64,000 bases of DNA from Candidatus Omnitrophota bacterium (GCA_020052645.1 JAGVOQ010000011.1:40890-104889); one strand, 5' to 3'. Counted from the stretch's first letter, positions 13,409 to 59,081 are shown. Made by a program: numbers and translations. The notes: generated by a model from the letters alone, not told the origin.

Positions 13409-13446
13409 TAACTTTGACTATAAAGGCTTATATTCTCTACAAGGTT

Positions 13447-13542: not shown

Positions 13543-13555
13543 AGGTTATTTTACT

Positions 13556-14419: not shown

Positions 14420-14518
14420 TGAGTACCTTAATGTCCTTATCCAGCGAAATCCCGCGACGTATGCCAAAATTTTTAAAGTGAAAAATTTTGGCATATCTTA
14501 CGCAGCGGGACAGACGCT

Positions 14519-15373: not shown

Positions 15374-15400
15374 ACACCCTCCTATTTTTAAATAAATCAT

Positions 15401-15449
15401 ATTATATTCATATTATGTTTGTGTGAGGTTCATGTAAAATGTGTGTAAA
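15401..15449 (-). promoter_or_regulatory. Pho-box-like direct repeats plus -10 element upstream of pstS
   Basis: The minus strand reads TTTACAcacatTTTACAtgaacCTCACA (boxes at 15449-15444, 15438-15433 and 15427-15422, 11-bp phasing). TATAAT follows at 15406-15401, then AGGAGG and the ATG. Confidence 0.55.
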
Positions 15450-15460
15450 ATTTAAAAAGC

Positions 15461-16114: not shown

Positions 16115-16214
16115 CCTTCCCTCCCTGCCTGCCGGCAGGCAGGCTTTTGTGTTAATTGTTTTTCATTTTCTAAGGGAAGTATAAAATACTGACATTAAAT
16201 CCGCACGAAGGAAA

Positions 16215-16231
16215 GGTAAAATATAAGTAAA
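16215..16231 (-). promoter_or_regulatory. two Pho-box-like hexamers upstream of the barrel-protein gene
   Basis: The minus strand reads cTTTACTtataTTTTACC, with 11-bp phasing, about 100 nt upstream of ATG 16114. Confidence 0.35.
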
Positions 16232-16307
16232 GTCTTTTTTTAAGGGGATTATTGCATTCTATCGGGAATAACGCCCCGCACTTAGAGGCATTACACGGGG
16301 GTCCCTC

Positions 16308-18086: not shown

Positions 18087-18765
18087 ATCTGTATCCGTAA
18101 TTTTTTACGGTAAGGATGCGCTTTGATTCGTTTTTTAGCTTTTTACGCAGCGTCCTAATATGTACATCTACGGTACGCGTCTGAATTTCCATCGCGTGGT
18201 CAAAACCCCAGATGGTATCTAAAAGATAGTCCCGTGACAAAACCCTTCCCTTCGCCTTTAACAACGTTTTTAATAATTCAAACTCTTTTGCCGTTACTGC
18301 GACGGGCTTATCTTTAACCATCACTACGATCTTTGAAAAATCAACAGTAAGATCGCCGACCCTAAACACCTGTGGCAATTTTTCTTTTTCATTTATACGG
18401 CGCAACACCGCCTTTATTCGCGCAATCAATTCCCTGGGGCTAAAAGGTTTTGTAATATAATCGTCTGCTCCTAATTCAAGACCAATAACTTTATCAGATT
18501 CCTGCGATTTGGCAGTCAACATAATAATAGGAATAGAGTCTGTTTTTGCTTCTTTTTTTAATTCCTTACAGACTTCCAAACCATCCATCCCCGGAAGCAT
18601 TAAATCCAACAGCACCAGATCAGGATGCTCCCGCATTGCCATATCCAAAGCATCCTCTCCATCTCTGGCAGACAAAGTTCTAAATCCTTCTTTCTGAAGG
18701 TTATATTCCAGCATTTTCACAATATCTTTTTCGTCTTCTACAATCAGAATTTTTTCTTTAGACAT
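18070..18765 (-). CDS. phoB: OmpR-family response regulator PhoB/PhoP-like
   Basis: Receiver domain (LVLLDLMLPGMDG, TAKS) plus a winged-helix domain (VDVHIRTLRKKL). Confidence 0.9.
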   Translation of the reverse strand: MSKEKILIVEDEKDIVKMLEYNLQKEGFRTLSARDGEDALDMAMREHPDLVLLDLMLPGMDGLEVCKELKKEAKTDSIPIIMLTAKSQESDKVIGLELGADDYITKPFSPRELIARIKAVLRRINEKEKLPQVFRVGDLTVDFSKIVVMVKDKPVAVTAKEFELLKTLLKAKGRVLSRDYLLDTIWGFDHAMEIQTRTVDVHIRTLRKKLKNESKRILTVKNYGYRFEYED

Positions 18766-28649: not shown

Positions 28650-28722
28650 AGCCGATGAGTGGAATCGAACCACCGACCCACGCTTTACGAAAGCGTTGCT
28701 CTACCAACTGAGCTACATCGGC
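28650..28722 (-). tRNA. tRNA-Thr (CGT)
   Basis: The reverse complement reads GCCGATGTAGCTCAGTTGGTAGAGCAACGCTTTCGTAAAGCGTGGGTCGGTGGTTCGATTCCACTCATCGGCT. CCA is not encoded. Confidence 0.88.
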
Positions 28723-28957: not shown

Positions 28958-30337
28958 CTACTCGCCGACTTTAAACAAGAGCTCCAAATCTTTCTTTGCT
29001 TCTTCAAGGTCACAAGCGCTTAATTCTCCAGTTTTTACAATGCATTTCACATTTCCATCATAATCCGACCACTCCTCAGAAAGCAACTCCCCTCTTTCCT
29101 CTACTTGCCTAAAATACTCAGTACCTGGAAAAGGGGTCGCATATGAAAACTGACAAGAATCAGGCTTCAATTCTTGGATAAAAGACTTCATCGCGCGGAT
29201 CGTCTCTTTTGTCTCACCCAATAGCCCTAAACAAAAGGTCAAGTGAACCTTGATCCCTTGATCTTTAGTCGCCTGAATCATCTGCCTTGTTTTTTTAAGA
29301 TCGATATTTTTCTTGATCCCCTCTAGAACGGCTTGCGAGACAGATTCAACGCCATATTTAACCGCATAAAAACCGCTTCCCGCCAGAACATCTAAGGTTC
29401 CTTCATCCATCAAGTCAGCGCGCGCCATGGCTGACCAGGGAACAGACAACTTTCTTTTTTTAATCTCACCGGCAATCCCAAGCACATGGTTTTTATCAAC
29501 ATTGAAGCAATCATCGTCGAAATAGACGGCTTTAAAATGATATTCTTTAACCAAATATTCCATCTCATCGACTACGGCTCTAGGATTTCTGAGGCGGATG
29601 CGACGCTCGTTGTAGATCACTTGAGGCCAAAGACAAAACGTACACGCAAACGGACAACCGCGGCTTGACAACATCTGCACGCTTGGAAACGGCATTTGAC
29701 AAAAACCGTCATGATATCTTTCCAGCGGCAAACTCGCGCGTTCAGGCCAAGGGAGTTCGTCAAGAGGTTCAATGCTCAAACGACGCGGATTTTCTAATAC
29801 TTGGCCGCTTTCCCGATAAGACAATCCGCGCACCTGGCTTAACTTTGAACCCGTCGCAAGATGCCGCACTAAATCCAAAAGCGTTCCTTCATACTCACCC
29901 CGAAAGACATAATCGATAACCGGATAGTGCTCAAGAATCTGTTGTGAAAATACCGTGGCATGCGGCCCAACAAGCGCAACAGAACCAGGAACAAGGCATT
30001 CCTTCATTTTCTTAATAAGGAACAAATCGTTGTCAAAAGAAGGCGTGGATGTTTCTACGACGATCAATGTGGGTGAAAAAAACTTTATTTTTTCAATCGT
30101 CTCGTTAATATTCAATTCTTGGGCTATTGAATCCAAGAGCAAAACTTCAACTCCGTCTTTTTTTAAAACAGCAGCAGCTGTCGCCAAAAAAAACGGAAAA
30201 GGAATATAAGGCAAATGCCCTTTGGGCACTGGAGGCGCTGTGAATGGCCAGCGCGAACCGGCGCGCACGCCAAAACGGCCCCGCACTTCCCAGGGAAGAT
30301 TAACCAGAACAACGCGCATATTACTTTTTGAAATCAA
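28958..30337 (-). CDS. B12-binding-domain radical SAM enzyme (class B)
   Basis: N-terminal Rossmann/B12-like module (MRVVLVNLPW...) followed by SSRGCPFACTFCLWP (CxxxCxxC). Confidence 0.8.
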   Translation of the reverse strand: MISKSNMRVVLVNLPWEVRGRFGVRAGSRWPFTAPPVPKGHLPYIPFPFFLATAAAVLKKDGVEVLLLDSIAQELNINETIEKIKFFSPTLIVVETSTPSFDNDLFLIKKMKECLVPGSVALVGPHATVFSQQILEHYPVIDYVFRGEYEGTLLDLVRHLATGSKLSQVRGLSYRESGQVLENPRRLSIEPLDELPWPERASLPLERYHDGFCQMPFPSVQMLSSRGCPFACTFCLWPQVIYNERRIRLRNPRAVVDEMEYLVKEYHFKAVYFDDDCFNVDKNHVLGIAGEIKKRKLSVPWSAMARADLMDEGTLDVLAGSGFYAVKYGVESVSQAVLEGIKKNIDLKKTRQMIQATKDQGIKVHLTFCLGLLGETKETIRAMKSFIQELKPDSCQFSYATPFPGTEYFRQVEERGELLSEEWSDYDGNVKCIVKTGELSACDLEEAKKDLELLFKVGE

Positions 30338-30659
30338 GGTGTTGCTCGATTTGTTCGAATGTAGAGGTTATTTGCTCAATATTAAGATTCATATCTTTAC
30401 AATCGCAATTCATCTGTTCCAGCATCTGCTTGGAATCAAACAACATCTGGCCCATGTTGGCGAACATGCGCACCAACGCCGCAGCCAACAGGCTATTGAA
30501 CAAAATAAAAAAACCCACCAACGGCAAACGCCCCTTCTGAAAATCAAAGATTGTCATGTAAATGGCCCCGCTCGCCCCTAAAAAAACCATGAGCCAGGAA
30601 AAAATTTCCAAAACAATCGTTGTCGGCATCTGTTGATTCTTCTTCGTCCATTTAATCAT
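30321..30659 (-). CDS. small 2-TM protein with a helical Met/Gln/Cys-containing tail
   Basis: Strong RBS (AAAGGGGG, 5 nt before the ATG). Two TM segments, then MLFDSKQMLEQMNCDCKDMNLNIEQITSTFEQIEQHL. Overlaps the next gene by 17 nt. Confidence 0.5.
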   Translation of the reverse strand: MIKWTKKNQQMPTTIVLEIFSWLMVFLGASGAIYMTIFDFQKGRLPLVGFFILFNSLLAAALVRMFANMGQMLFDSKQMLEQMNCDCKDMNLNIEQITSTFEQIEQHLDFKK

Positions 30660-30827
30660 ACGTAACCCCCTTTGTTTTGCTTCGCTTAAGGTCTCACCCT
30701 TTCAAAACAAACCTCGACGCTTTCTTAAAACTTTTTGAAGTTTTTAAGAGTTTAAGCGGCGGGTTATTCGCTAAATCATCTAAACGCCTTTTCAGAGATT
30801 AAACAAGAAATACTTCGCTTCCTTTTT

Positions 30828-32126
30828 TCACATTTCCCTATGCGTTGCTTCAGCTGCCTGTGCCAGAAGCATCAACATCTCAGGCATGCGCATTCTTAGG
30901 CCCTCGACCCATTCTTCAAAACAGACGGAAGATTCTTTTAAAAAACTTGTATCCAAATGAGGATGCTCTTTTTCCCTAATATCCTTCCAGTCATGAGCGC
31001 CTTCAACCAAAGCGACAAAACTTTTTAAAAGTTCCTCTTTAACATCAGGAAAAACAGATAAAAAAAGGTCTTTAAAAAAAGACTCACGAAATCGTGAATC
31101 GCGAAATTGGTGCCGTAGACAATTACTTAAAAGAAGGGAAAACGCGAAAAAATTCTGCGCAAGCGCCTTTGAGTCCGGGACAAGGCTTAAAAATGTAGAA
31201 CGCCCTCGGTCCATATGGTAAAAAAAACTTAAGTCCATCAACGCAACAAATCGAGAGAAGTCTGAGGCCTCCTCGCGCGACGATTTCTTTTTCTCCTGAA
31301 AAAAGAAAAATTCAAAATCTTTAAAAGCATGATGAACAGCCATTAAAAAATTAATGTAGAGTAAATTTTTGTTTCCCGCTTTTAAGTCTTCTTCCATGTA
31401 ATGCTGAGCGGTCCAGAAATCTGTTTTGATTTTTGTCAAAAATCGCGTAGCCTGAAAATGATTCTCCTGCGTATAATAAGGCAATTGCCAATGCCAATGA
31501 TTATTTAAAACAGATATAAGAGTGTCCCGCTTTAAATGGTTCGCGACAGCCCTTGGTTCATATTTAAAAATATACCCCGCGTTCCTCAACCTTGAACAAA
31601 TCTCAACATCCTCGTAGTTGGTCTTATAAATCTCATCGTAAAGACCGATTTTTGAAAAGACGTCGTGACGAAAAACCGTGTTAGAGCCGAATAAAAAAGG
31701 CGGTTCGCTTTGAGTCTCATGCCAATATTGGCGCATATGCACGGAGCGCCACTCATCGCAAACGTTCGACGTATACGCTTCGCAAAGTTTGCCGCCGGCG
31801 CCCGCGACGCAAGGCGCGTCAAATTTTTCAACAAGAAGCTTCAGCCAATCGGCTTGCGGAACACAATCCGCATCCAGGGATGCGATAAAAACCGAACGGG
31901 TATTCTTAAGACCCGAATTGCGGGCCGCTGCCAGTCCGAGATTGCTTTGATGACGAATGAGACGGACAGGATACCTTAAGACGATATCAACCGTTTCATC
32001 ACTTGAGCCGTCATCAATGACCAAAACCTCTTTTAATGGAAACGACTGCGCCAACACAGCCTTCAAACAGGGCTCGATGGTGTGCGCGGCGTTAAAACAA
32101 GGAATAACAACAGTAACGTCATCCAT
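30828..32126 (-). CDS. family-2 glycosyltransferase with an unassigned C-terminal domain
   Basis: VTVVIPCFNAAHTI..., VLVIDDGSSDET and a DADC (DxD) motif. The C-terminal half of about 200 aa is unrecognised. Confidence 0.8.
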   Translation of the reverse strand: MDDVTVVIPCFNAAHTIEPCLKAVLAQSFPLKEVLVIDDGSSDETVDIVLRYPVRLIRHQSNLGLAAARNSGLKNTRSVFIASLDADCVPQADWLKLLVEKFDAPCVAGAGGKLCEAYTSNVCDEWRSVHMRQYWHETQSEPPFLFGSNTVFRHDVFSKIGLYDEIYKTNYEDVEICSRLRNAGYIFKYEPRAVANHLKRDTLISVLNNHWHWQLPYYTQENHFQATRFLTKIKTDFWTAQHYMEEDLKAGNKNLLYINFLMAVHHAFKDFEFFFFQEKKKSSREEASDFSRFVALMDLSFFYHMDRGRSTFLSLVPDSKALAQNFFAFSLLLSNCLRHQFRDSRFRESFFKDLFLSVFPDVKEELLKSFVALVEGAHDWKDIREKEHPHLDTSFLKESSVCFEEWVEGLRMRMPEMLMLLAQAAEATHREM

Positions 32127-33297
32127 TTTTTAAATAATCCAGTTTTTTTTGAATATTGTCCTGTGCTGAGCGAATCTCAGCCAATATTTTATTTGAGGCA
32201 TCCTCTTTCCTTCTTGAAACCATAACTTGATCCAACAAAACACGTGCGATTTTTAAACCCATATATCTAAAATATTGATAAGCCCTGAAATAAAATCTTT
32301 TTTTTTGAATTTTCTTGAACTTCGCAACGTTAAACGTCTTTAATAATTTATATCCGCGTGGAACAAAATTACGGTCATAACAACTCATAAGACAACCGCA
32401 ACAACCAGTTTTTAAAACATCCTGCCGCAAGCGATCATGTGCGTCGGAATTCCAAATATTAAGCAGCGAGCCTTGCGCGATATTACCCAAGGGCTTGTCG
32501 CTTAAAACCCAGCAAAGAAAAACATCGCCTTGGGCTGATATAGGGCACGATGTCCATAAGGCACGGCAAGAATGCTCTTTGACAGGCGGCCTTAGATCGC
32601 ACAGATACGAGGCCAGATCCAAAAGATACCCCTTAGGGTTGGTTTCGATTCCATAAGACCTGGCCAATTCCATCACGCGTTCAAGGCTCGCCTGAACATC
32701 CGCAAGCAATTCACTGGAAATAAAAAAATCCCGCCGCTTGTTTTTATCAATAAGAAAAATATCACTAAAGGGCTGGAATTTCACCGAAGAGACGCCGTGA
32801 CGGCGGGCCAGATCCATAACATCAGACAACGTCTGATAATTCTGCCGACACACAATAGTGGCAATCGTTGTCTCAATTTTTTTTGCAGAAAGAATCTCGA
32901 GCGCTTTTAAAGCTCTTTTAAAGCTCCCCTGGCCTCTTAAAACATCATGCACGACTTCAGGCCCCTCGAGCGAGATATTAACAACGCCGATTCCCGAAGC
33001 TGCGAGACGTTCGGCGATGGCCTCATCAATCAACGTCCCATTAGACGTCAAGCAGGTGTTGATCTTTAATTCATGGACAAGAGACATTAGCTCAAAGATA
33101 TCAGACCGTACAAGCGGCTCTCCTCCGCTAAAAACAATGCTTTCAGGACACAACCGCGCGGCATCCCGGATCAATCTCTTACACTGTTCAGTGCTTAATT
33201 CCGCCTTGTCATTTTTTTCAGGAATCTGACACATGGCACATCTTAAATTGCACCGGTTTGTTATGGAAAGGATGACTTCTTTTAATCTATTGTTCAT
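32119..33297 (-). CDS. radical SAM enzyme with a Cys-rich C-terminal (SPASM/twitch-like) domain
   Basis: ITNRCNLRCAMCQ, FSGGEPLVRSDIF, TSNGTLID, and a C-terminal CPISAQGDVFLC...GCCGCLMSC. Confidence 0.85.
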   Translation of the reverse strand: MNNRLKEVILSITNRCNLRCAMCQIPEKNDKAELSTEQCKRLIRDAARLCPESIVFSGGEPLVRSDIFELMSLVHELKINTCLTSNGTLIDEAIAERLAASGIGVVNISLEGPEVVHDVLRGQGSFKRALKALEILSAKKIETTIATIVCRQNYQTLSDVMDLARRHGVSSVKFQPFSDIFLIDKNKRRDFFISSELLADVQASLERVMELARSYGIETNPKGYLLDLASYLCDLRPPVKEHSCRALWTSCPISAQGDVFLCWVLSDKPLGNIAQGSLLNIWNSDAHDRLRQDVLKTGCCGCLMSCYDRNFVPRGYKLLKTFNVAKFKKIQKKRFYFRAYQYFRYMGLKIARVLLDQVMVSRRKEDASNKILAEIRSAQDNIQKKLDYLKNG

Positions 33298-34493
33298 GGA
33301 TGGCTGGGTTTTCTTTCTATCATGGACTCATACGGCTTAAGCATCTTCAAGCCTTTTTCTAAAATTTCTCTTTTTTCCAGATCACTTAAAGGCAAGGACT
33401 CGATTTGACAGGTAAAATTTTCAACGATAGCACTCAACGAATCAGCTTCAGGCCGCGCCCAACAAGTCTGTAAACACGGCTTAGCGCAACGCAGCATCTT
33501 ATCTCGGGCTTTTTGAGCCTGGGCGCTCGATAAACAATCATTCAAGCTCATGTCCCTGACGTTGCCGAAAGAAGAACCACAGCTCCTGACATTCCCATCA
33601 GGGCCAATATCAATAAATACAAAAGGATTGCACTTCCAAATCTCTCTTGTTAATGTCCCTTGAAAATAATCGAGCCAAAGCATAGGGTCGTGTAGAAAAG
33701 CAATCCGCTCGTCATTCTTTTGGGCCGCCGCGATCCGCTCAATCTGAACTTTCAAGAGATTTACCTTATCTTTTCTTACCCAAAACGAACCTGTAGAAAT
33801 CGTATTCTGCATATCCGCCTGAGCCACGATAACAGGATGATAAACCAAGTGATCTATTTCAAGCTCTTGGGCAAGCGTCATCATATCGCAGAGCTCTTCT
33901 AAATTTTCTTTCATAATAGTCATCCAAACAGAAATATCAGGGCCACTCCCCTTCTTTTTCTTTTCTTGGGAAAGAGCACGCAAAGCGCCAACAGCCTTTT
34001 GATACGTACCGCCCACGCCACGAATCGCATCATGAGTTTCAGCGACAGCGCCGTCCAAAGAAACAGCGATATTCTTTAAGCCCGAGGCCACAATCTTTTC
34101 AATCATATGAGCGCTATCAATCAGGGTGCCATTCGTAACAACTTCTGTTTTTAACCCAAGAGATACCGCCCCATCAATAATGCTAAAAATGTCCCTTCTT
34201 AAAAATGGCTCGCCCCCTGTAAAAACAACACAAGGATCCGTTTGCCACTGTGCGATTTCAGCCAAAACCTTTTTCAAAAGCATAAAGTCCAGTTTATGCC
34301 GTCGAAGCGTTCTCTTGTTGCCGCACATTTGACAGTCTAAATTACATTTATGAGAAAGGCTGATGTAAATCCATTGCGGCCTAGCCAATGGTTTCTTAAA
34401 CACAGAGGAAAAATAATATTTCAGATTTTCCTCGAAATTCTTTAGTGGCGCTGAACCCGAATGCGTTTTTTCTAACTTCATTGTTTCATTCAT
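33294..34493 (-). CDS. radical SAM enzyme, paralogue 2
   Basis: SLSHKCNLDCQMCG, FTGGEPFLRRDIF and RCAKPCLQTC. The start at Met25 forms an ATGA overlap with the upstream stop. Confidence 0.85.
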   Translation of the reverse strand: MNETMKLEKTHSGSAPLKNFEENLKYYFSSVFKKPLARPQWIYISLSHKCNLDCQMCGNKRTLRRHKLDFMLLKKVLAEIAQWQTDPCVVFTGGEPFLRRDIFSIIDGAVSLGLKTEVVTNGTLIDSAHMIEKIVASGLKNIAVSLDGAVAETHDAIRGVGGTYQKAVGALRALSQEKKKKGSGPDISVWMTIMKENLEELCDMMTLAQELEIDHLVYHPVIVAQADMQNTISTGSFWVRKDKVNLLKVQIERIAAAQKNDERIAFLHDPMLWLDYFQGTLTREIWKCNPFVFIDIGPDGNVRSCGSSFGNVRDMSLNDCLSSAQAQKARDKMLRCAKPCLQTCWARPEADSLSAIVENFTCQIESLPLSDLEKREILEKGLKMLKPYESMIERKPSHP

Positions 34494-35752
34494 CGTAAAG
34501 AATTGATTTTTTTCCTTATACATCCAAGGCGACCCAATTCCCGTCCCAAGCCGTATGTTTCCCAAAAGCCGAAAGCACCCACTTTTTTATCTTTGATTTC
34601 TGTCCTTAAAACATCTTCTAAGGCTTTAAGCCTGTCCAAGAGCCCGGCCTTAACCTCGCTCTTTTCATCCTGGGGCTTTGAAGAAACCTTTTTAAGATAC
34701 TCACTGACTTGAGCTATGATATCCGTCGGAAAATAAATGCAATCCTGCATACAAAAATTCCTGCAGTTTTTAGCGCTTTCCCTGATTTTTTTAGCCTTAT
34801 GACAAAACCAGAGTTCTTTAAGGGTTTTATTTTTTAAATTTCCATACACACCGAAACAGCTCCAAAGGACACCGTCATAAGAAATAACGATCCGCTTGAT
34901 CGCCTCATAACAGTTAAAACTTTTGAACACCTTCTTACTTTTAAAATATGCCGGCATGGCGTTAAGAATCGCCCTGTCGGTAAAAACGTTTGTCTCTTTA
35001 AAACCAGGTTTTAAGCTTAAAACTTTATTCCAGACTGATTTTAATAAGTCTATATCTCTTGCCTTCGGCCACAGATCATCTTTGGCCTCTTCATACATTT
35101 TTGTATTATTTGCCAAAAGTGGCTGAAAAAGGATGCTGCATTTATGATCCCTGGCAAATTCAACTAAAGGTAAGATATCGCCAATGTTAGCCCCCATCAC
35201 GGTACAATTAATGATAAGGGTCGGAAAAAATGTATTATACACCGACTTCAAGCGATTGAGCCTCTCAATATTCGATTTTACTTTTTCAAAAACACCCACC
35301 CCGCGTATAAAATCATTTTTTTCTTTCAAGCCGTCCAAAGAAAAAGACACATTGTTCACTTTCAACTTAATTATCTGTTCGCATTTCGCCTCATCAAGCA
35401 AAGTTCCGTTGGTGATAATATCCACCATCTCGATGCCGCGGCGAACAGCATAAGCAACAAGTTCGGATAATCCCTCTTTTAAAAAAGGCTCACCCCCTGA
35501 AAATATAATATGCCGGGCCCCCAGATCTTTAATTTGATCAATGATGTTTTTAAGTTCTTCAACACTCAACTCCTGTTCAAGCCTTGATGAAATATCAGGG
35601 ATATCACACATCTTGCACCGCAGGTTGCAGCGGTTGGTGAGATTGAAATAGACATGTTCCGGAGGGACAAGAGGTCGAGAAAGGGCCCTGCCGAAATAAA
35701 ACCCTAAGATATCTTTCCACTGATTCAATTCTCTTCGCGCGAATAAATCCAT
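34490..35752 (-). CDS. radical SAM enzyme, paralogue 3
   Basis: NLTNRCNLRCKMCD, FSGGEPFLKEGL, ITNGTLLDE and NCRNFCMQDC. Confidence 0.85.
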   Translation of the reverse strand: MDLFARRELNQWKDILGFYFGRALSRPLVPPEHVYFNLTNRCNLRCKMCDIPDISSRLEQELSVEELKNIIDQIKDLGARHIIFSGGEPFLKEGLSELVAYAVRRGIEMVDIITNGTLLDEAKCEQIIKLKVNNVSFSLDGLKEKNDFIRGVGVFEKVKSNIERLNRLKSVYNTFFPTLIINCTVMGANIGDILPLVEFARDHKCSILFQPLLANNTKMYEEAKDDLWPKARDIDLLKSVWNKVLSLKPGFKETNVFTDRAILNAMPAYFKSKKVFKSFNCYEAIKRIVISYDGVLWSCFGVYGNLKNKTLKELWFCHKAKKIRESAKNCRNFCMQDCIYFPTDIIAQVSEYLKKVSSKPQDEKSEVKAGLLDRLKALEDVLRTEIKDKKVGAFGFWETYGLGRELGRLGCIRKKINSLR

Positions 35753-35767
35753 GTTTGAACTTTTTCT

Positions 35768-36805
35768 TTAACTACACAACTGTTTCGCTAAATGCTTCAA
35801 ACTCCCCGCGGCTATTTTAGAATAACAGGCCTGTAAACACAGCCGCGTGCACGTCTTGGAATGCCTACGCAATTCATGAGCCTCTTTTGACCTCCAGGCT
35901 TTTTTTAATGAACACCTGCTTAAGTCGCCGCAAAGGCCGTGGCAGGAATACGCATAGGGAATTTTATGAGAAAAACAGACAAACAATGTTTTGAAACCTC
36001 CAAAACAAACCCAATCTTTTTGAGTCAAAGTTCCGTCGTAATATTTAACAAGAAGATTCAGGCTGGGCTCTTCATAAAGGCGCACATGCCGGTATTGGGC
36101 GGTTTTTATTTTTTCGATCTCATCTTTTAACAACCTTAAACTGTTTTTTTGGACCCACCCAGAGCTTTTGGAACAATCCGTAAAATCAGCATTGTCCGAA
36201 AGAATCGGCTGAAAATTAATAACATCTATCTTGTGCTCATCCGCCCACGCGGCGATTTTTGACAATTCACCCGCGTTAACATCCATCACTGTGCAGGCGA
36301 CTCCTAAAGAAAAAAAACGTTTTTTGAAGCGGAACTCATTCAAAAAACCTATCCCTTCAACGATTTTCCCAAACGTCCCAGAACCTCTTAAATGATCATG
36401 GGTAGCCTTTAGCCCATCCATTGAAATATGAACATGGGCAACGCCACTGTCAGCGAGTTTTTTAGAAACATCCTCATCTAACAAAGTGCCATTAGTCGTA
36501 AGTACAGTCTTTAAGCCGCGTACAGCGGCATAGCGACAAATGTCAAAGATATCGCTCCGAAGAAGCGGCTCTCCACCGGTTAAGACCAATTCCTTAACCC
36601 CTAGAGCCACAGCGCCATCTAAGAGCTTTTCCACCTGGGCCTGCGCAAGTTCTTCCTCCTGCGGCAATAATTGCTTTAAATGACAAATTTTGCACTTCAA
36701 ATTGCAACGATACGTCAGCGCAACCTGCATCACTTGAGGACCAACAAGAGGATAACCGATCTTGTGCGACAGCCAAAAGAAAAAATTATCTTTTTGACAG
36801 ATCAT
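35768..36805 (-). CDS. radical SAM enzyme, paralogue 4
   Basis: ALTYRCNLKCKICH, LTGGEPLLRSDIF, TTNGTLLDE and TCTRLCLQAC. Confidence 0.85.
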   Translation of the reverse strand: MICQKDNFFFWLSHKIGYPLVGPQVMQVALTYRCNLKCKICHLKQLLPQEEELAQAQVEKLLDGAVALGVKELVLTGGEPLLRSDIFDICRYAAVRGLKTVLTTNGTLLDEDVSKKLADSGVAHVHISMDGLKATHDHLRGSGTFGKIVEGIGFLNEFRFKKRFFSLGVACTVMDVNAGELSKIAAWADEHKIDVINFQPILSDNADFTDCSKSSGWVQKNSLRLLKDEIEKIKTAQYRHVRLYEEPSLNLLVKYYDGTLTQKDWVCFGGFKTLFVCFSHKIPYAYSCHGLCGDLSRCSLKKAWRSKEAHELRRHSKTCTRLCLQACYSKIAAGSLKHLAKQLCS

Positions 36806-36824
36806 TTTTTAAATTTATTTTTTG

Positions 36825-38741
36825 TCATGCTTCACAAAAACACGGTAATAAACATGGCCAGGGACATTTTTTAACACGTGCCGAAGCTCGCATCCTCTTA
36901 GGACTATTCAGGATATTTTCAAAATTCTTCTTTTTGATATTACCGTAAGAAGAAAAACAAGTCGTACAATCTCCTAAAGTTGAGACCAAAACAGTCCGGC
37001 CGGCAGATTGGCATTGGATATCCCTCGACGTAAGCGTCCCCCGATAATATTTTTTTATCAGCAATAAATTTAAAAGTGAATTTTTTATAAAATTAGGGCA
37101 CTGGCGCTTTAAAGCAACCAGCTTATCCAACGCGGCATCCAGCACAGAAAAACGCTCTTCAGGAACCCAAAAACCGCTCGCCTTTCTTTCGTCCATCTTT
37201 AAATTATTCGGCAAAAGCGACTGGAATTGCAACGAATTGGCACCTAGCGAATGAACGAATGAAACAATCTCATCAAGCTCTTCTAAGTTCTGATTCAAGA
37301 TGACCGTAATAACATTAAAATTGATCTGGGGATTTTTATTTTTTGCCTGCGCCAACCTTCTCAATACGGCGTGCGTTGCCTCCCAGGCAATTTCAGAATT
37401 CCTGACCGTGTTATGGACAACTTGTTTCAAAGAATCAAAAGAAATCACAAGAGAAATGGTATTATCACAAAGATATGGCATCACAACCTCAAAATGTTTT
37501 TCTACCAATATACCATTGCTTAAAACCCCTAGATTTTTAATTTTTAGATTCCGCGCGGTTTCAAAAACATTAAATATGTCCTGACGTAAAAGCGGTTCAC
37601 CGCCGGATAAAGTAATTTCAGGGATCTTAAGTGCCTGGGCTTGCGACAAAATACGCGCAAGAGCATCAAACCCTAAGTCTTCATCCTTGCTTTTAGTTTT
37701 CCAAATATCGCAAATATTACACATCAAATTGCATTGATGCGTGATGTCGAGGATCAAAAGACGGGGAACTCCAGCGCCACCGTCGTTTGTGCCGAATCCG
37801 TTTTTTTTGATCTGGAAAAATTCGCGAATGTTGCCTGCGATATAACAAATTTTGTGCATCGTAAAAAAAAGATAAATATCACATTTGTTAAAAAATCCTT
37901 TCACATCCTCTTCACGAATCAGTTTTCGTCCGCAGAGAAAACTAAAACGCGGGATCTTTAAAATATTGACGAAAGAACCAAACCAAAAAGACAAAGAGCC
38001 GGTTCTTAGTTCCTTAAGCAGAGGATGATCTCTATGCATATGCTGAACCAAAAAGTTCCCGCGGCCATAAACAAAGGCCTGCCTTAAAAAACTTTTTACA
38101 GTCCCTTCCCTGTCGTGAAGGACTTTGATTTCAGGGATAAAAAGAAAACGCCTGCCTTTTTTAAACAAACGCCAGAAAAATTCAAGATCCTCTCCTCCCG
38201 GAAAAAGAAAGCGTTCGTCAAAACTTTTTAAGCCGAAAACATCTCTTTTACATGAAACATTACAGGTAGGGAAAAATATAATTTCTTTCTTGCCAGCCAA
38301 TTTCGTTTCAATGCTCCATGTGCTTAATTTTTGACTGATCAAAAGATGAGGCGTAGAACACCCTGAAATTGTTTCACCTCCGATACAAGATATCTTGGGG
38401 AATTTTTGATGGGCTTCAACCATCTGTGCGACCCATGACCCCATGACCAGGCAATCATCATCAACAAAACCTATCAGAGAGCCACTGGCCACCTCGATGC
38501 CGCGATTTCGGGCGCGCGCCGGCCCTTGGTGAGATCCGGAGACATAACGAAGATTAAAAAAATCGTTTTTTGCTTCATCGACAACTTTTTTCGTTGATTC
38601 AGAAGCTCCATCATCAACAACAATGATCTCAAAAGTATAGCGGCGATCCTTCATTGCCGCAAAAGAATCCAAACAGCGCTTAAGACTTGCGTCTCGCTTA
38701 CATGTCGGTAGTACGATCGAAATATCGATGCTCATATTCAA
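36825..38741 (-). CDS. fusion protein: N-terminal GT2 glycosyltransferase plus C-terminal radical SAM domain
   Basis: Residues 1-300 carry ISIVLPTCKRD, IIVVDDGASEST and FVDDDC. From residue 330 they carry ILDITHQCNLMCNICD, LSGGEPLLRQDIF and KCPWPCLLPC. Confidence 0.85.
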   Translation of the reverse strand: MNMSIDISIVLPTCKRDASLKRCLDSFAAMKDRRYTFEIIVVDDGASESTKKVVDEAKNDFFNLRYVSGSHQGPARARNRGIEVASGSLIGFVDDDCLVMGSWVAQMVEAHQKFPKISCIGGETISGCSTPHLLISQKLSTWSIETKLAGKKEIIFFPTCNVSCKRDVFGLKSFDERFLFPGGEDLEFFWRLFKKGRRFLFIPEIKVLHDREGTVKSFLRQAFVYGRGNFLVQHMHRDHPLLKELRTGSLSFWFGSFVNILKIPRFSFLCGRKLIREEDVKGFFNKCDIYLFFTMHKICYIAGNIREFFQIKKNGFGTNDGGAGVPRLLILDITHQCNLMCNICDIWKTKSKDEDLGFDALARILSQAQALKIPEITLSGGEPLLRQDIFNVFETARNLKIKNLGVLSNGILVEKHFEVVMPYLCDNTISLVISFDSLKQVVHNTVRNSEIAWEATHAVLRRLAQAKNKNPQINFNVITVILNQNLEELDEIVSFVHSLGANSLQFQSLLPNNLKMDERKASGFWVPEERFSVLDAALDKLVALKRQCPNFIKNSLLNLLLIKKYYRGTLTSRDIQCQSAGRTVLVSTLGDCTTCFSSYGNIKKKNFENILNSPKRMRASARVKKCPWPCLLPCFCEA

Positions 38742-38750
38742 CTTTTTTTC

Positions 38751-41468
38751 CTAAACATCGCCAAAAACAATCCTGCCTGTAAAATATGAATGTTCGCCCA
38801 TATCTAAAACAGCGGCATTTTTTGTGAGATACTGAAGAATCCTACCTCGAAAATAAAGATCCGAATTAACGATATTTAAACAACCGTTTCTATTATTTGC
38901 ATCTAAAGAAAAAACAATCGGCGGCAAGGCACCATCGACTCCTGACGCAACCCCTATAGAACGATCGCACTTTTCTTTAGCCCCATCTTCTGTCCAAATC
39001 AAATCCCAATCATCATCGATATCGCCTCGAAAATCAGGAAAAGCCCCTTCTGCCCCCAGCCCTTGCCATTTAAGATATTCTTCAGAAAGCATGAGATTCG
39101 TTTGCAGGCGTTCAAAAGCAAGCCCTTGATCCAAAATCAGACGTACATTGAAAAAAACCCTCATTTGTTCATCCAGAGAAATTTCCCAAATCTGGCTCAT
39201 GGGCAACTCTCTCCATCGCCCTCGGGCTCTTATGAAGCGCGCGTTATTCTCTAAAATTTCCCATTGAGCCATTAGCAGGGAATCATGCCAGCGCCCTTTA
39301 TAGCGCAAAGACGTATAAAAAGCGTGTTTCTTGGTCAGCTCTTTTCCTTTCTTAAACAAACGCACGCATCCATTATCAAAAACTATTTTTTTATTCTCGT
39401 CTAAAACGATTTCCGCCCGCATCTTTAGAAAAACAATCGGTTCATTTTTAAATGCGACACTTAATTCAAAACAAGGGGTGAAGCCACGGGAAAATTTCAT
39501 CCTTCCTTCAGGTTCAACGCGTTCTATTTTTAACTCACGGGCGCTGTACGAAAAATCAGAATTACCGATTTTCGCAAAATTATTCAATACTTTAGAAAAT
39601 TTTATTTCACAAGAAGGCAAAGAATCACCCTGTGCGCTCAAACCCACAACGCCGCCGCAAATACAACGTTGAACCACATCAAAAAAAACTTCGCCAAAAT
39701 CATTCAAGAATTCCCCGCGATCAACATCCGTAAACCAATAACCATATTGCGACAAACATCTGAACGTCATGCCCTGACTTTCTATATCCACTTCCTGACT
39801 TAAATCCAGGCCCACCTTTACCCTGAATTCGGATTCATTTAAAATTTCTATCTCCCACACCTGGGAAAGAGGCAAGTTGTGCCAAAACCCCCGAGCAATA
39901 AGCTTCGTTGCGCTTTCTTTTTTAAACTCCCATTGGGCGTACGTCGAAGAATACCATCGTCCGTTGGCAAAGAAAGAAACGCTCGCATGATCCCCCTTGG
40001 TAAGCGTTACCCCTTTACAAGAAACCATGAGGCGGCCGTTATCAAAAACACATTTTAAAGCTCCTTTTTCTAAAACAAATTCTTCCTGTATTTGGCGCAG
40101 AAATTTTTCAGGCTCAGGGACCGCGCAAAGAATTTTTCCGGAAAAAATATGCCGATGGACTATCCCCAAATCTTCGTTCTCGTTAAAAACAGTTGTCTTA
40201 AATTGCAAAAGACGACAATTCAAAAAATCATCGGAATTAAAGATCTGGGCATGGCAAAGGCCGGACTGCTGAAAGATCAAAGGCGCGAGATTTGTATCGG
40301 AAGTTGTCTCTGCCTTAACTCCTAACGCCTTTCTCTCAATATTGTTACCCAGAAAAGCCTGCCAATTCCAACTGGCCTGCCCTTGAGATAAAAATTCACC
40401 CTGTTCTAAAGTCGTCATCCAATGCGTAAAGCCGCGGGTAAGCATAATATTGGAGCATCCCTCTTGAACAACGAAATTCCTTGGTCCCTCAACCTCAACC
40501 TGCCAATCAATACAACTGTTTCTTAAACTAATTTTCCAGACTTGAGTCAATGCAGGGCTTGAAAGTTTCCCTCTTAAGACCCACAGGCCTTCCCCGCCGC
40601 TTGCAACCTCCCAATCGAATTCCTGAGAGCTGACCCATTTATTATCCACGCGCAAAACCATGTGCGCGCCTAAACCCGGGGTCAAAAGCACGTCGCAAAA
40701 ATTTATGAAGAGCCGGCCGTTATTAAAAATAATTTTTAAAGGCCCCTCTTGCAATCCGGCGATCCCTTTCTTTTCTCCGATATTCTGCAAAAACGCCGAA
40801 ACAACCAAATCCACCGGCCCATCCTTGATCAGCCGGCCCTCTTTAAAAAGAAGGACGCGACAACACAATTGCCGCAATAAATTAATATCATGCGTCACAA
40901 AAAGAATCGTCTTTCCCTGTTCTTTCAGCTCAAAAATCTTCTGAACACATTTTTTCTGAAAATATTCATCACCGACAGCCAAGGTATCATCAATCAAAAG
41001 GATGTCCGGATCTACATGTACGGCGATGGCGAAAGCCAGACGCACAAACATGCCTTGCGAATAACATTTAACCGGGGCATGGATAAATTTACCTAAAGCC
41101 GCGAAACGTATAATGGCGTCACGACGCTCTTCAATCTGTTTTTTATTTAATCCAAAAAGGCCGCCGCTTAAAAATATATTTTCCTCGCCAGTCAATTCAG
41201 GTTGAAATCCGGCCCCAAGCTCTAACAACCCTGAAACACGGCCTTCAATACCAACCTGGCCCCGGTCAGATTTTAGAAGACCAGCTATTAATTTCAAAAC
41301 CGTCGATTTACCGGCGCCGTTTTCTCCGATAATACCCAGGGTTTCGCCTTTTTCAACGCTAAAACTAACGTCTTTCAAAGCCCAAAAGCTCTCCCAGGCG
41401 GTCCTTCGCCTCTGGAAGAACTTAATCCTATACATTTCCCAAACGTTTTTGAATTGAACAACAGGCAT
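38751..41468 (-). CDS. Wzt/TagH-type polysaccharide ABC exporter ATPase with a roughly 660-aa triple-repeat C-terminal extension
   Basis: GENGAGKST, YSQGMFVRLAFA, ILLIDDTLAVGD and VTHD in the first 230 aa. Three homologous modules of about 215 aa follow. Confidence 0.85.
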   Translation of the reverse strand: MPVVQFKNVWEMYRIKFFQRRRTAWESFWALKDVSFSVEKGETLGIIGENGAGKSTVLKLIAGLLKSDRGQVGIEGRVSGLLELGAGFQPELTGEENIFLSGGLFGLNKKQIEERRDAIIRFAALGKFIHAPVKCYSQGMFVRLAFAIAVHVDPDILLIDDTLAVGDEYFQKKCVQKIFELKEQGKTILFVTHDINLLRQLCCRVLLFKEGRLIKDGPVDLVVSAFLQNIGEKKGIAGLQEGPLKIIFNNGRLFINFCDVLLTPGLGAHMVLRVDNKWVSSQEFDWEVASGGEGLWVLRGKLSSPALTQVWKISLRNSCIDWQVEVEGPRNFVVQEGCSNIMLTRGFTHWMTTLEQGEFLSQGQASWNWQAFLGNNIERKALGVKAETTSDTNLAPLIFQQSGLCHAQIFNSDDFLNCRLLQFKTTVFNENEDLGIVHRHIFSGKILCAVPEPEKFLRQIQEEFVLEKGALKCVFDNGRLMVSCKGVTLTKGDHASVSFFANGRWYSSTYAQWEFKKESATKLIARGFWHNLPLSQVWEIEILNESEFRVKVGLDLSQEVDIESQGMTFRCLSQYGYWFTDVDRGEFLNDFGEVFFDVVQRCICGGVVGLSAQGDSLPSCEIKFSKVLNNFAKIGNSDFSYSARELKIERVEPEGRMKFSRGFTPCFELSVAFKNEPIVFLKMRAEIVLDENKKIVFDNGCVRLFKKGKELTKKHAFYTSLRYKGRWHDSLLMAQWEILENNARFIRARGRWRELPMSQIWEISLDEQMRVFFNVRLILDQGLAFERLQTNLMLSEEYLKWQGLGAEGAFPDFRGDIDDDWDLIWTEDGAKEKCDRSIGVASGVDGALPPIVFSLDANNRNGCLNIVNSDLYFRGRILQYLTKNAAVLDMGEHSYFTGRIVFGDV

Positions 41469-41469
41469 C

Positions 41470-42285
41470 TTAGATTCGTTTTAACAGATTGGATTCAAAA
41501 CGCGCAAAAATCAATAATCCCAACATTAGGGTTAACCCGGACAAAAGGAAAAGAAGAAAAAAACTAAAAGCAGACGGAATTTGGCCATAAAAAACAAGGG
41601 CCCTAAAATCAATCACGTAGAGTGTGACTGGATTAAGAGCAACAATCCAGCGGAATTTCACAGGAAGCATATCCAGCGAATAAAAAACCGGAGTGATCCA
41701 AAACCAACACATAAAAATGACGCCCAGAAGATGGCCCAGATCGCGGACAAAAACATTTAGAACAGACAGCGCAAGCCCCGCGCCCCAGGTCAAAAACAAA
41801 AATAAAAGAAGAACGATCAAAATAAAAGGAAGGAAAAAAATGATCTTCGGATGTTGGATTATAAACAAAGGAAGAACGACAATCCACCCAATCATAAAAT
41901 TTAAAAAATTGGCCAGAATAGAAGACAAGGGCAAAATTTCTTTAGGAATGTTGAACTGACGTAAAATAGCGGCTTGGTTTAAGAATACCGAAGAGGCCTC
42001 TGTCAACGCGCAGGAAAAAAACATCCATAAAAAAATCCCGGAAAGGACAAAAAGAGAATAGTGACCGACACTCATTCTCGAAAAACCGCTGAATACACAT
42101 GTAATAGCCAGAGCGACCAACAACGGATTTACGATCGCCCAAAATACCCCCAAAAATGAACCTGCGTATTTAGCCTTAAGCTGCTTGAACGCCAAATCCC
42201 ACAACGCATGACCGTACAAAAATATATCCTCAACTCGTTTCTTAAAATCCATTCGCACCCCAAGAGGTTTTTTTATGCTTTCCAT
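41470..42285 (-). CDS. ABC-2 type (Wzm/TagG-like) exporter permease
   Basis: LKAKYAGSFLGVFWAIVNPLL N-terminal motif and 6 TM segments. Sits 1 nt from the ATPase gene. Confidence 0.85.
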   Translation of the reverse strand: MESIKKPLGVRMDFKKRVEDIFLYGHALWDLAFKQLKAKYAGSFLGVFWAIVNPLLVALAITCVFSGFSRMSVGHYSLFVLSGIFLWMFFSCALTEASSVFLNQAAILRQFNIPKEILPLSSILANFLNFMIGWIVVLPLFIIQHPKIIFFLPFILIVLLLFLFLTWGAGLALSVLNVFVRDLGHLLGVIFMCWFWITPVFYSLDMLPVKFRWIVALNPVTLYVIDFRALVFYGQIPSAFSFFLLFLLSGLTLMLGLLIFARFESNLLKRI

Positions 42286-52113: not shown

Positions 52114-53472
52114 TCAAACCGGCGGCGGAAAACCATGATAAACGCGATCCATGGATATAATGGCCAGGTCGTTAAGGCGGGACTTCACCACGAGGTCCCA
52201 AAACCTCTGATATTCAATCAAAGCAAATACGATAAGACATAAAACTAAAAAAATCATCGCCAAATAAAAAAAACAATTCCTAAGCTTAGCCCTTAAAAAA
52301 AGAATAACCTCCCAGACACCGCATGCGCTCAATAAATAAAAAGGCCCGCTAACAACACCCATGTACCTCATATTTTTTAAATTCGGCATATAAGTAATGA
52401 TGCCAATGTAAGCGGTCAAAATAAAAATCATGAAAAAAACAATATCCTGATTTTTATGAAAAAATAGAACTTTGGGTTTAATTTTATTAAATAGCGCCAC
52501 AACAATAGCCAAGGCACATAAAACCATACTACAAGGCATTAACAACCAAAAACCTTTAATGATTTGAAACCATGGGCCGGAGCAAGTCCTAACGCCATAA
52601 GGCGAACCATCCATGATTCCCCGAATATGGGAGATAGCTTCCCACACAATAGGCGCCCCGCCGACTACCCAAAAAAGAATTCCTGCGCTTATCGCCATTC
52701 CAAGGATGCTGAAAATTACCAACAAACCTGCCCTTTTAAATTCTTTTTCCCTGAAAATCAAAAATCCCAATACATACAGAAGACACAGCCCATAAATGAT
52801 AACAGCTGATTCTTTAATGAGCAGACCATACGCACCGGCAACGATAAAAAGAACCATCCAAATCGTCTTGCGAAAATCTTTTATTATCCTGCAGCTTAAA
52901 TACAAGAGCAACATTCCCAAGCACCCCATCATGGCATCTTGCCAAAATCTTTGCGCCAACGCAATATCTAAGGGAGAAACCGCCGCAAGAAAAAGAGCCA
53001 ACGCAGCAATCGGCCAATTAAAAAAACGGATGGCAAACATCATCATAAGCAATAATGACACGATAGTAAAAAAACAAGAAACAGCAACCCCACCCTGGAG
53101 ACTTGGTACTCTTGTTATTTTCATAACCAGTGCAATAGGAACAAGATAACCTATTCTATAAGGAGGTGGATAATACCAGCTTTCTTTATTGGCATTAAAA
53201 TTTCGCAGCAAAAGCCTTATGCCAGAAATTTCTTTTTCCATTATAGTCGTCGTAAAATAAGCATATATACCTTCATCAGCGCTTCGGCCATCCAACTGAT
53301 GCATGCTCTCAAGCCGAAAGACGCTCCCAGTAAAAAAAGCCTGGAACAATATTATAGACACAAAAAAATTCCTAATCCTGCGACCAGACCCTCCCTCTAT
53401 TTTTGCCACAAACACTTCCAGCCGAGCGTCTTCTTTCTTTTTTAGGTCTTTAATAACTTGCTCATCCTTCAC
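52114..53472 (-). CDS. GT-C fold (ArnT/PMT_2-like) membrane glycosyltransferase
   Basis: About 11 TM segments and an acidic first-loop motif, SADEGIYAY. Confidence 0.6.
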   Translation of the reverse strand: MKDEQVIKDLKKKEDARLEVFVAKIEGGSGRRIRNFFVSIILFQAFFTGSVFRLESMHQLDGRSADEGIYAYFTTTIMEKEISGIRLLLRNFNANKESWYYPPPYRIGYLVPIALVMKITRVPSLQGGVAVSCFFTIVSLLLMMMFAIRFFNWPIAALALFLAAVSPLDIALAQRFWQDAMMGCLGMLLLYLSCRIIKDFRKTIWMVLFIVAGAYGLLIKESAVIIYGLCLLYVLGFLIFREKEFKRAGLLVIFSILGMAISAGILFWVVGGAPIVWEAISHIRGIMDGSPYGVRTCSGPWFQIIKGFWLLMPCSMVLCALAIVVALFNKIKPKVLFFHKNQDIVFFMIFILTAYIGIITYMPNLKNMRYMGVVSGPFYLLSACGVWEVILFLRAKLRNCFFYLAMIFLVLCLIVFALIEYQRFWDLVVKSRLNDLAIISMDRVYHGFPPPV

Positions 53473-53493
53473 CGCAATCTCCTTTTTAAAAGT

Positions 53494-55104: not shown

Positions 55105-55136
55105 TCGTTTAAAGCGCCTTCTTTAGACCCTTCTTG

Positions 55137-55205
55137 AGTGAAGTTCCTTAGGACTTTAAGTCCTAAGGCTTCCTCCTTTAGCAGAAAATGCACAACACCA
55201 TTCAT
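55137..55205. repeat. 69-bp dispersed repeat, copy B
   Basis: Same sequence as 25685-25753 except T/C at 25741/55193. The flanks are related but diverged. Confidence 0.9.
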
Positions 55206-55257
55206 TCTTTAGGGCTAAAAGCCTTAAAAGGATTTCTGCTAAAGGATTAAGCCTAGT

Positions 55258-59047: not shown

Positions 59048-59081
59048 GCAATAATACGGCGCAAAAGTTAACTATCTATAT

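Follow-up and report, generated by a model that had tools for sequence, protein, structure and literature searches.

A conserved Omnitrophota operon joins six radical-SAM enzymes to glycosyltransferases and a Wzm/Wzt exporter and may direct a radical-tailored surface-glycan pathway

To our knowledge, radical S-adenosylmethionine (radical-SAM) enzymes take part very rarely in the assembly of polysaccharides, and we know of no O-antigen locus that carries a set of six; the known radical-SAM enzymes that act on sugars modify either soluble intermediates of antibiotic synthesis or individual lipid head groups. The ATP-binding cassette (ABC) transporter-dependent O-antigen pathway of Escherichia coli O9a, Klebsiella O12 and Aquifex aeolicus (PDB 6an5, 7k2t, 8dku) places adjacent Wzm and Wzt genes and family 2 glycosyltransferases (GT2) in one operon, and its Wzt carries a C-terminal extension of beta-sandwich fold. 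Here we analyzed a stretch of 64,000 nucleotides (nt) from a Candidatus Omnitrophota bacterium (GCA_020052645.1 JAGVOQ010000011.1:40890-104889; hereafter the window, from whose first letter all coordinates are counted). Positions 28958-42285 hold an operon that combines such an exporter and two GT2 domains with six radical-SAM enzymes. We propose that this operon probably encodes an Omnitrophota version of the ABC-transporter-dependent, lipid-linked surface-glycan pathway, in which the sugars are tailored by radical chemistry. The open reading frame (ORF) listing gave ten tightly packed genes, all on the minus strand and transcribed from 42285 to 28958; the co-directional packing described in an initial annotation of this DNA was borne out, and its count of eleven genes was corrected to ten.

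The radical-SAM enzymes recall several further systems. BlsE, from blasticidin S synthesis, and AprD4, from apramycin synthesis, both act on sugar rings and are the nearest solved structures by sequence. Mycofactocin synthesis pairs a SPASM-domain radical-SAM enzyme (MftC) with a GT2 (MftF), and both GT2 domains of the operon, together with one of its radical-SAM proteins (paralogue D below), match mycofactocin models. In the hopanoid pathway (HpnH, HpnI, HpnK and HpnJ), a GT2-type transferase acts first and a B12-domain radical-SAM enzyme then works on the transferred, lipid-linked sugar; HpnJ has been proposed to contract the glucosamine ring of the product of the GT2 HpnI (PMC13459092). A survey of the literature on radical-SAM, Wzt and glycosyltransferase loci in Omnitrophota found no description of the present system, which fits the initial annotation's remark that the gene combination was not a described one. 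Omnitrophota genome papers refer to polysaccharide cassettes and radical-SAM domains in general terms only, and they report these bacteria to be ultra-small and often host-dependent. A literature match from Xanthomonas proved to be an unrelated plasmid gene. The locus thus appears to unite a known export logic with an undescribed battery of radical-SAM tailoring enzymes, a GT2::radical-SAM fusion and a new putative ligand-binding domain on Wzt.

The first gene of the operon encodes Wzm (41470-42285, 271 amino acids (aa)), an ABC-2 type permease with several hydrophobic segments (PF01061, 47.5 bits), whose best NCBIfam match is the galactan Wzm/RfbD model, under the cut-off of that model. Wzt (38751-41468, 905 aa) follows after a 1-nt gap at 41469. 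Its nucleotide-binding domain occupies aa 1-239 (40752-41468; PF00005), and Pfam shows nothing past aa 163. In the PDB, this ATPase matched the O-antigen Wzt of Aquifex aeolicus (8dku/6amx, 223 bits) and TarH/TagH (166-181 bits), and the TagH and galactan-Wzt models were its top NCBIfam matches. The locus therefore contains the adjacent ABC-2 permease and Wzt/TagH-type ATPase by which ABC-dependent glycan export is recognized, and the pair appears closest to the exporters of O-antigen, teichoic acid and galactan. The Pfam matches of Wzm and Wzt confirmed the previously noted ABC-2 exporter with a long-tailed ATPase.

The tail of Wzt (38751-40751) is made of three tandem domains of about 220 aa each (aa 240-454, 463-676 and 687-903). 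Alignment of these units with one another by hhalign (probability 100, E values of 1e-41 to 1e-44) established that the triple repeat first seen by eye is a true repeat. Neither a Pfam model nor a PDB sequence matched the tail, so that, in contrast to the Wzt proteins of the O-antigen pathway, this Wzt carries three domains of another, unmodelled family. A model of the tail built with AlphaFold2 (AF2) from a 32-sequence alignment is all-beta, with a mean predicted local distance difference test score (pLDDT) of 85. Foldseek comparison with the PDB returned galactose-mutarotase-like 'supersandwich' domains of carbohydrate-active proteins, including cyclic glucan synthase (E 5e-6), aldose 1-epimerases (template-modelling (TM) scores of about 0.45-0.49), LacZ, members of glycoside hydrolase (GH) families GH38 and GH129, and cellobiose phosphorylase. 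We regard the tail as a putative glycan-binding module.

A profile search with the repeat found the domain in 561 representative proteins among 1.84 billion, at one to eight copies apiece. Eight of the 561 were scanned with Pfam. Three of them consist of an N-terminal ABC_tran domain followed by repeats and otherwise have no Pfam match. One protein of 1856 aa (P0358) joins ABC_tran and five copies of the tail domain to a radical-SAM/SPASM module, and another of 1403 aa (P0415) combines a B12-type radical-SAM module, a radical-SAM/SPASM module and two copies. Two (P0404 and P0351) are PMT_2 transferases of the GT-C fold that carry the domain, and the last, of 259 aa, has no Pfam match at all. 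The fusion of one domain to ABC_tran with radical-SAM, to B12-type radical-SAM and to PMT_2 GT-C modules argues that exporter, radical enzymes and periplasmic GT-C enzymes handle one common ligand, which the tail domain would recognize, and is the strongest argument for that reading. With ligand binding judged from fold and fusions, the domain would define a new family of ligand-binding domains. One tail-domain protein reaches eight copies in 2244 aa.

Downstream of Wzt lies the gene that marks the locus, a GT2::radical-SAM/SPASM fusion of 638 aa (36825-38741). Pfam places PF00535 at aa 8-169, PF04055 at aa 333-496 and a weak SPASM match at aa 577-622, and the DxD, CxxxCxxC and C-terminal CxxxCxxxCxC motifs are all invariant among the homologues; the JGI annotation starts this gene 29 codons later. 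Four paralogous radical-SAM genes follow. Paralogue A (35768-36805, 345 aa) matches PF04055 with 84 bits and has CNLKCKIC at aa 34; paralogue B (34490-35752, 420 aa) scores 96.9 bits for PF04055 and 21.6 bits for SPASM. Paralogue C (33294-34493, 399 aa; PF04055 and SPASM) has as its nearest solved protein BlsE, a cytosylglucuronate decarboxylase (61.5 bits in the PDB search), and paralogue D (32119-33297, 392 aa; PF04055 107.6 bits, SPASM 38.6 bits) matches SkfB (56 bits) and BlsE (50.8 bits). The sixth enzyme, encoded by the last gene of the operon (28958-30337), is a 459-aa ORF product in which an N-terminal B12-binding domain (PF02310, 38.1 bits against a cut-off of 32.1) precedes a CxxxCxxC core (PF04055, 57 bits; CPFACTFC at aa 228-235), the arrangement expected of a class B radical-SAM enzyme. 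Its true length is probably 453 aa, with translation starting at Met7.

Pfam thus recognizes Radical_SAM in six operon proteins and SPASM in four of them, in agreement with the six radical-SAM enzymes, the B12 enzyme with its CPFACTFC motif, the two GT2 domains and the fusion that had been recognized from the sequence. Paralogue A has no Pfam SPASM match, yet it carries the C-terminal Cx3Cx3C cysteines (between aa 267 and 327). This C-terminal Cx3Cx3C-type pattern is common to all five SPASM-type proteins, whose pairwise identity is 25-34%; the four paralogues of the initial annotation, with this low identity among themselves, are distant ones.

No radical-SAM protein of the operon attains the cut-off of any curated NCBIfam family. 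The SPASM-type proteins score 84-124 bits against the models for AhbD, NirJ, MoaA, PqqE, MftC, anSME and maturases of peptides made by the ribosome and modified after translation (RiPPs), whose cut-offs are 265-650; for the cofactor and metalloenzyme maturases among them (PqqE, NirJ/AhbC/AhbD, MoaA, anSME and the tungsten-cofactor maturase), the cut-offs are 284-650. With every score far under its cut-off, there is no clean membership in the cofactor-maturase families, an outcome that the initial annotation had named as one that would refute its reading. For the B12 enzyme, the curated model that fits best is HpnJ; the match scores 262 bits, where the cut-off is 577, and covers 32-419 of 472 model positions. 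The nearest solved relative of this enzyme is AprD4 (6fd2, 79 bits). BlsE, AprD4 and HpnJ all act on sugars, and HpnJ and AprD4 are not methylases. The C-methylation that the initial annotation assigned to the B12 enzyme, and the epimerisation or dehydration assigned to the others, stay conjectural. From these similarities, HpnJ or AprD4 would be the closest guide to how the B12 enzyme works, and BlsE the closest guide for the paralogues. The resemblance to BlsE and AprD4 is of low identity and limited to the core domains; those two enzymes use soluble nucleoside or aminoglycoside intermediates and, unlike the operon enzymes, have no link to a GT2 fusion or an ABC-2 exporter.

Two further genes separate paralogue D from the B12 enzyme. 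The first encodes a GT2 of 432 aa (30828-32126; PF00535, 122.5 bits), hereafter GT2ctd. As the initial annotation had indicated, its C-terminal domain has no assigned family, Pfam giving no match past about aa 214. The AF2 model (pLDDT 91) resolves a GT-A fold at aa 1-200 and an all-helical domain at aa 203-431, in which K232, D247, H265, H266 and D270 are invariant; the number of full-length homologues, each about 435 aa long, exceeds 100. The Foldseek matches (WrtF, TarP and others) arise from the GT-A half only, and because this half dominates the search, the helical domain obtained no independent match. Neither operon GT2 has a predicted transmembrane segment. The second gene encodes a 112-aa protein (30321-30659) without a Pfam or NCBIfam match, in which a Kyte-Doolittle (KD) hydropathy scan confirmed two transmembrane segments (aa 11-38 and 44-69); its positive N-terminus suggests a cytoplasmic C-terminus. 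Homologues of 128-301 aa come from ten related loci and extend the family from 112 to 301 aa, the window copy being the shortest; the difference lies in an insert, either coiled coil or repeat, of 0 to about 190 aa that separates the transmembrane helices from a conserved C-terminal motif, '(C/S)D(S/T)KD...FF..IERHLDLKK'. The cysteine of this motif is replaced by serine in three of the loci. The gene always lies between those for GT2ctd and the B12 enzyme, and the layout offers a lead that the protein may be a membrane anchor or a molecular ruler or spacer.

To place the operon in its phylum, we collected loci related to it. The fusion has at least 120 full-length homologues of 44-83% identity, and those with an organism name are nearly all from Candidatus Omnitrophota/Omnitrophica. 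A scan of one genome per species yielded 53 loci with the fusion, again nearly all Omnitrophota and usually beside Wzm and a Wzt of about 905 aa. The block is shared by about 50 species-level genomes, so the clustering is not a matter of chance; the neighbourhood is conserved in related genomes, with the block syntenic across them, and judged from these sequences it is a signature locus of Candidatus Omnitrophota. ORFs were called in the related loci and then matched to the window proteins, and presence was counted in the 24 loci for which 9 kb or more of each flank was covered. Wzm and Wzt were each present in 22 of the 24 and a flavin adenine dinucleotide (FAD)-dependent amine-oxidase-like protein in 19, and the number of radical-SAM genes per locus ranged from 2 to 10 (median 6). 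Many loci share an order that runs, in its 5' part, through GT4 (not in every locus), a WecA-like PF00953 transferase, the FAD protein, sometimes a tetratricopeptide repeat (TPR) protein, Wzm, Wzt and the fusion, and continues with SPASM-type and B12-type radical-SAM genes in a series that varies between loci. A 3' module composed of paralogue C, paralogue D, GT2ctd, a small transmembrane protein and a 452-aa B12 enzyme is likewise found in many loci.

Orthologues of paralogue C (47-57% identity) occur in 14/24 loci and those of paralogue D (40-54%) in 12/24; paralogues A (46-53%) and B (42-48%) have orthologues in a subset of loci and rank as accessory, and the 452-aa B12 orthologues (50-58%) stand at the 3' end of at least ten. 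A relative with 83% identity (L057) carries an operon of the same ten genes between ComEC and a major facilitator superfamily (MFS) gene. In a relative with 61% identity, the operon occupies the site found in the window, LeuRS-ComEA-ComEC ... MFS-FMN_bind, and paralogues A and B are absent. As these two are missing at the same syntenic site, the radical-SAM complement is variable, the pattern expected of variable tailoring modules. Other proteins that recur in related loci are PMT_2 GT-C transferases (often with TPR repeats), GH44-like proteins of about 700 aa, SGNH/GDSL proteins and FGE-sulfatase-like proteins.

Some details of individual loci were also recorded. The FAD protein is of the PRK07208 type and about 433 aa long, is paired with the WecA-like gene upstream of Wzm in L002, L004, L005, L007, L009 and other loci, and by score is not a UDP-galactopyranose mutase (32.8 versus 303.75). 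In L057 (4048-6392 of that locus), comEC upstream of the operon is cut to a fragment of 201 aa, whereas the comEC of the window is intact (499 aa); a large serine recombinase of 562 aa and some eight small genes lacking annotation precede the fragment, and the gene looks disrupted by an inserted integrative element or prophage. The fusion also occurs on two contigs labelled Nanoarchaeota (L042 and L054) and on one labelled Paceibacterota (L027). L042 and L054 hold the fusion with paralogues C and D and have no Wzm/Wzt within the available flanks, and they represent either mis-binning or transfer outside Omnitrophota.

The conserved neighbourhood also bears on the earlier observation that the usual partners of a glycan locus are missing. 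This is true of the locus in the present lineage but does not extend to the system, since a WecA-like transferase (PF00953, best match WecA) lies just upstream in 16/24 related loci, giving them the same kind of start as the O-antigen pathway, and one related locus has nucleoside diphosphate (NDP)-sugar epimerases and a Wzy_C/WaaL-like gene. The lack of an adjacent WecA, seen also in L033, is on this comparison a trait of the lineage and not of the system. The operon further differs from the O-antigen pathway in having no WbdD-type kinase/methyltransferase terminator, in its six radical-SAM enzymes, and in the absence from the window of genes for an initiating transferase, nucleotide-sugar synthesis or a ligase.

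The sequences directly show the gene content and packing, the domain architecture with its fusions, the conservation of the locus and its exclusion from known radical-SAM families. From homology, neighbouring genes and fused domains we infer the carrier lipid, the glycan product, each reaction and the binding of a ligand by the tail, and on that basis propose the following scheme. The two GT2 enzymes would build a sugar chain on a polyprenyl-phosphate carrier at the cytoplasmic face, following an initiating transferase that would necessarily be encoded elsewhere in this genome. The six radical-SAM enzymes, five of one SPASM/twitch-type subfamily and one HpnJ/AprD4-like enzyme with a B12 domain, would remodel the lipid-linked sugars. 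The physical fusion of a GT2 to a radical-SAM module leads us to propose that glycosyl transfer and radical chemistry take place on the same intermediate. The HpnJ/AprD4-like enzyme could act late in the pathway, for example by ring rearrangement, deoxygenation or methylation, and the protein with two transmembrane segments could anchor or position GT2ctd and the B12 enzyme at the membrane. By analogy with E. coli O9a Wzt and its carbohydrate-binding domain, the three tail domains would bind the glycan, and Wzm/Wzt would then export it. The initial annotation had suggested an exported polymer or glycolipid tailored by anaerobic radical reactions; homology, gene context and domain fusions all support that suggestion, which they leave as a reading of the genes.

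Several points weigh against the proposed surface-glycan pathway. Its product and chemistry are read entirely from such indirect evidence, and nearly all of that evidence comes from metagenome-assembled genomes (MAGs), some with doubtful taxonomic labels. SPASM-type enzymes most often act on peptides or cofactors, and two glycosyltransferase domains against six radical enzymes is an odd ratio for a polymer. Throughout the 64-kb window there is no initiating transferase, and homologues of the WecA-like, FAD amine-oxidase-like and SGNH/GDSL proteins are likewise absent; Pfam families for nucleotide-sugar synthesis, polymerase and ligase were not found among the larger window ORFs scanned. The fold matches of the Wzt tail are modest (TM scores of about 0.45-0.49 to mutarotase-like domains; E values of 1e-4 to 5e-6), and Wzt_C (PF14524) was not detected in Wzt at E<=0.01, the tail being unrelated to that known domain.

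The alternative that survives best, although we consider it unlikely, is remodelling of a glycolipid head group, in which the GT2s would glycosylate a membrane lipid and Wzm/Wzt would flip the glycolipid to the outer leaflet. The radical-SAM chemistry would then be ring contraction to a cyclitol (the reaction proposed for HpnJ and Cds), formation of C-C or ether bonds, or methylation, on the head group or on the lipid. The presence of only two glycosyltransferase domains suits this alternative, as does the B12 enzyme, with HpnJ as its best curated match (262 bits); the other matches among the operon proteins include TIGR04072 ('lipid biosynthesis B12-binding/radical SAM protein'), HpnH and the tetraether synthase Tes/GDGT-MAS. 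Precedents exist in the action of the glycosyltransferase HpnI and then HpnJ on hopanoid-linked glucosamine and in that of calditol synthase on a glycolipid (PMC13459092). Homologues of lipid-modifying radical-SAM enzymes (Mss, Hbs) have been reported from Omnitrophota MAGs, and the window holds a UbiA prenyltransferase and a radical-SAM gene at 55258-60347. All scores against lipid families, however, lie far under their cut-offs, the HpnH-like matches among the paralogues reaching 63 bits against 225 and the HpnJ match falling short of 577. Squalene-hopene cyclase, HpnG, HpnK and lipid-synthesis genes were not found among the ORFs scanned. Unlike the hopanoid pathway, the locus has a Wzm/Wzt exporter in the context of a polyprenyl-linked glycan: the WecA-like, GT4, GH44-like and WaaL-like genes of related loci typify polyprenyl-linked polymers, the nucleotide-binding domain of Wzt is nearest to polymer exporters, and a 660-aa binding module of three domains fits an extended ligand.

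Distinctly less probable is a glycosylated peptide or protein modified by radical-SAM enzymes, with a precursor encoded elsewhere or represented by the 112-aa protein, the C-terminal motif of which would serve as the core. SPASM enzymes are typical peptide maturases, and sub-threshold matches to StsB, WgkB, MftC, ScmE/F and PapB were obtained. Both GT2s match MftF, and the C-terminal portion of about 30 aa in the 112-aa family is strongly conserved, with a cysteine in most members. That cysteine is nevertheless not invariant, and the scores against mycofactocin models stay below their cut-offs (MftF, 138 and 116 bits against 280; MftC, 120 against 265). The marks of a RiPP locus are lacking, with no precursor gene in the gaps, no match of the operon proteins to the Pfam models for the RiPP recognition element (RRE) or PqqD, and every maturase model under its cut-off. 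As the radical-SAM cores begin at aa 16, 34, 42 and 50, they leave no room for an RRE/PqqD domain. In contrast to mycofactocin synthesis, the operon has no MftA precursor, MftB (an RRE protein), MftD or MftE, and its exporter is an ABC-2 Wzm/Wzt pair, not a peptidase-containing peptide exporter; the WecA-like and glycan-processing genes of related loci also speak against a peptide.

That assorted maturases of cofactors or metalloenzymes lie beside an exporter by coincidence is hardly credible: the AhbD, NirJ, MoaA and tungsten cofactor oxidoreductase maturase models are the top NCBIfam matches by E-value (84-124 bits), but each score is three- to sixfold under the family cut-off, on which ground this reading was rejected, and the genes show translational coupling to those for GT2 and Wzt (one being fused to a GT2), form a block syntenic across about 50 genomes, and have no haem, pyrroloquinoline quinone (PQQ) or molybdenum cofactor (Moco) pathway genes adjacent.

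Within the surface-glycan pathway that we prefer, the observations can be joined into a more specific account, which we put forward tentatively and regard as doubtful in its entirety. The main source of glycan diversity would be an exchangeable set of radical-SAM enzymes (2-10 per locus), not differing glycosyltransferases, and these enzymes would yield carbocyclic, C-methylated, deoxygenated or C-C/ether cross-linked sugars on a lipid-linked chain. The 3' module of GT2ctd, the transmembrane protein with its coiled coil of 0-190 aa and the HpnJ-like enzyme would act as a WbdD-like terminator and ruler, and the triple Wzt domain would read the resulting end-modification before export.

The locus stands out for its phylum-wide distribution, for a glycosyltransferase fused to a radical-SAM enzyme and for up to ten radical enzymes beside an O-antigen-type exporter. 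Collectively, these features point to an anaerobic pathway, independent of oxygen, that would give surface sugars of unusual chemistry, and its product could be relevant to how the cells attach to hosts or prey. The operon also represents a compact ten-gene target for heterologous expression.

The junctions quoted in the initial annotation all proved correct. Paralogues B and C overlap by ATGA (34493-34490, minus strand). The mechanical ORF of paralogue C begins with TTG, reaches 34565 and encodes 423 aa; given the ATGA, the real start is taken to be the ATG at 34493, for a product of 399 aa. The genes of paralogues C and D overlap by 4 nt (33294-33297), and those of paralogue D and GT2ctd by 8 nt (32119-32126). 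The sole sizeable gap in the operon is the 168-nt spacer at 30660-30827, which has stop codons in each of three frames, holds no ORF and has no match in an Rfam scan; the initial annotation had likewise seen no ORF of note in the spacer and no short precursor ORF in any gap. Promoter and terminator scans returned chance-level counts (28 versus 26.3 expected and 24 versus 21.3, respectively) and are therefore uninformative on the spacer and the operon ends. The Rfam scan of the window detected four tRNAs only and no riboswitch, including no cobalamin riboswitch near the B12 enzyme.

Upstream, the operon is flanked by the housekeeping genes ComEC, ComEA and LeuRS. Downstream, a tRNA-Thr(CGT) gene (28650-28722, minus strand; Rfam 70.3 bits, ARAGORN) marks the 3' boundary directly after the B12 enzyme gene, inside a 426-nt gap ahead of the MFS gene, which is followed by genes for a flavin mononucleotide (FMN)-binding protein and PurN. 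The GC content of the operon (0.41-0.46) is similar to that of its flanks. A horizontally acquired island is not favoured, given the flank-like GC and the syntenic site in the relatives with 83% and 61% identity; the abutting tRNA-Thr was noted beside this possibility.

A second envelope-type cluster lies on the minus strand at 52114-60347. It contains PMT-like GT-C proteins of 452 and 536 aa, a TPR protein of 731 aa and a seventh radical-SAM/SPASM gene (421 aa); its part at 55258-60347 comprises the radical-SAM gene and a UbiA-family prenyltransferase of 544 aa that is extended at the N-terminus by about 260 aa. None of the cluster proteins attains an NCBIfam cut-off. Because GT-C and TPR genes lie within the main locus of other Omnitrophota, this cluster and the radical-SAM operon may be functionally linked.

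Elsewhere in the window, an arsenic-resistance-like set on the minus strand (5024-10417) includes an SBF/Acr3-type transporter, a DsbD_2 membrane protein, an S-adenosylmethionine (SAM)-dependent methyltransferase, an ArsP-type permease and a low-molecular-weight phosphatase (ArsC-like). A further region, also on the minus strand (10332-18765), is a phosphate-uptake regulon with PhoU, two PstB-like ATPases, two permeases, a PBP_like_2 binding protein, DUF2490, a PAS/HAMP histidine kinase and an OmpR-type regulator.

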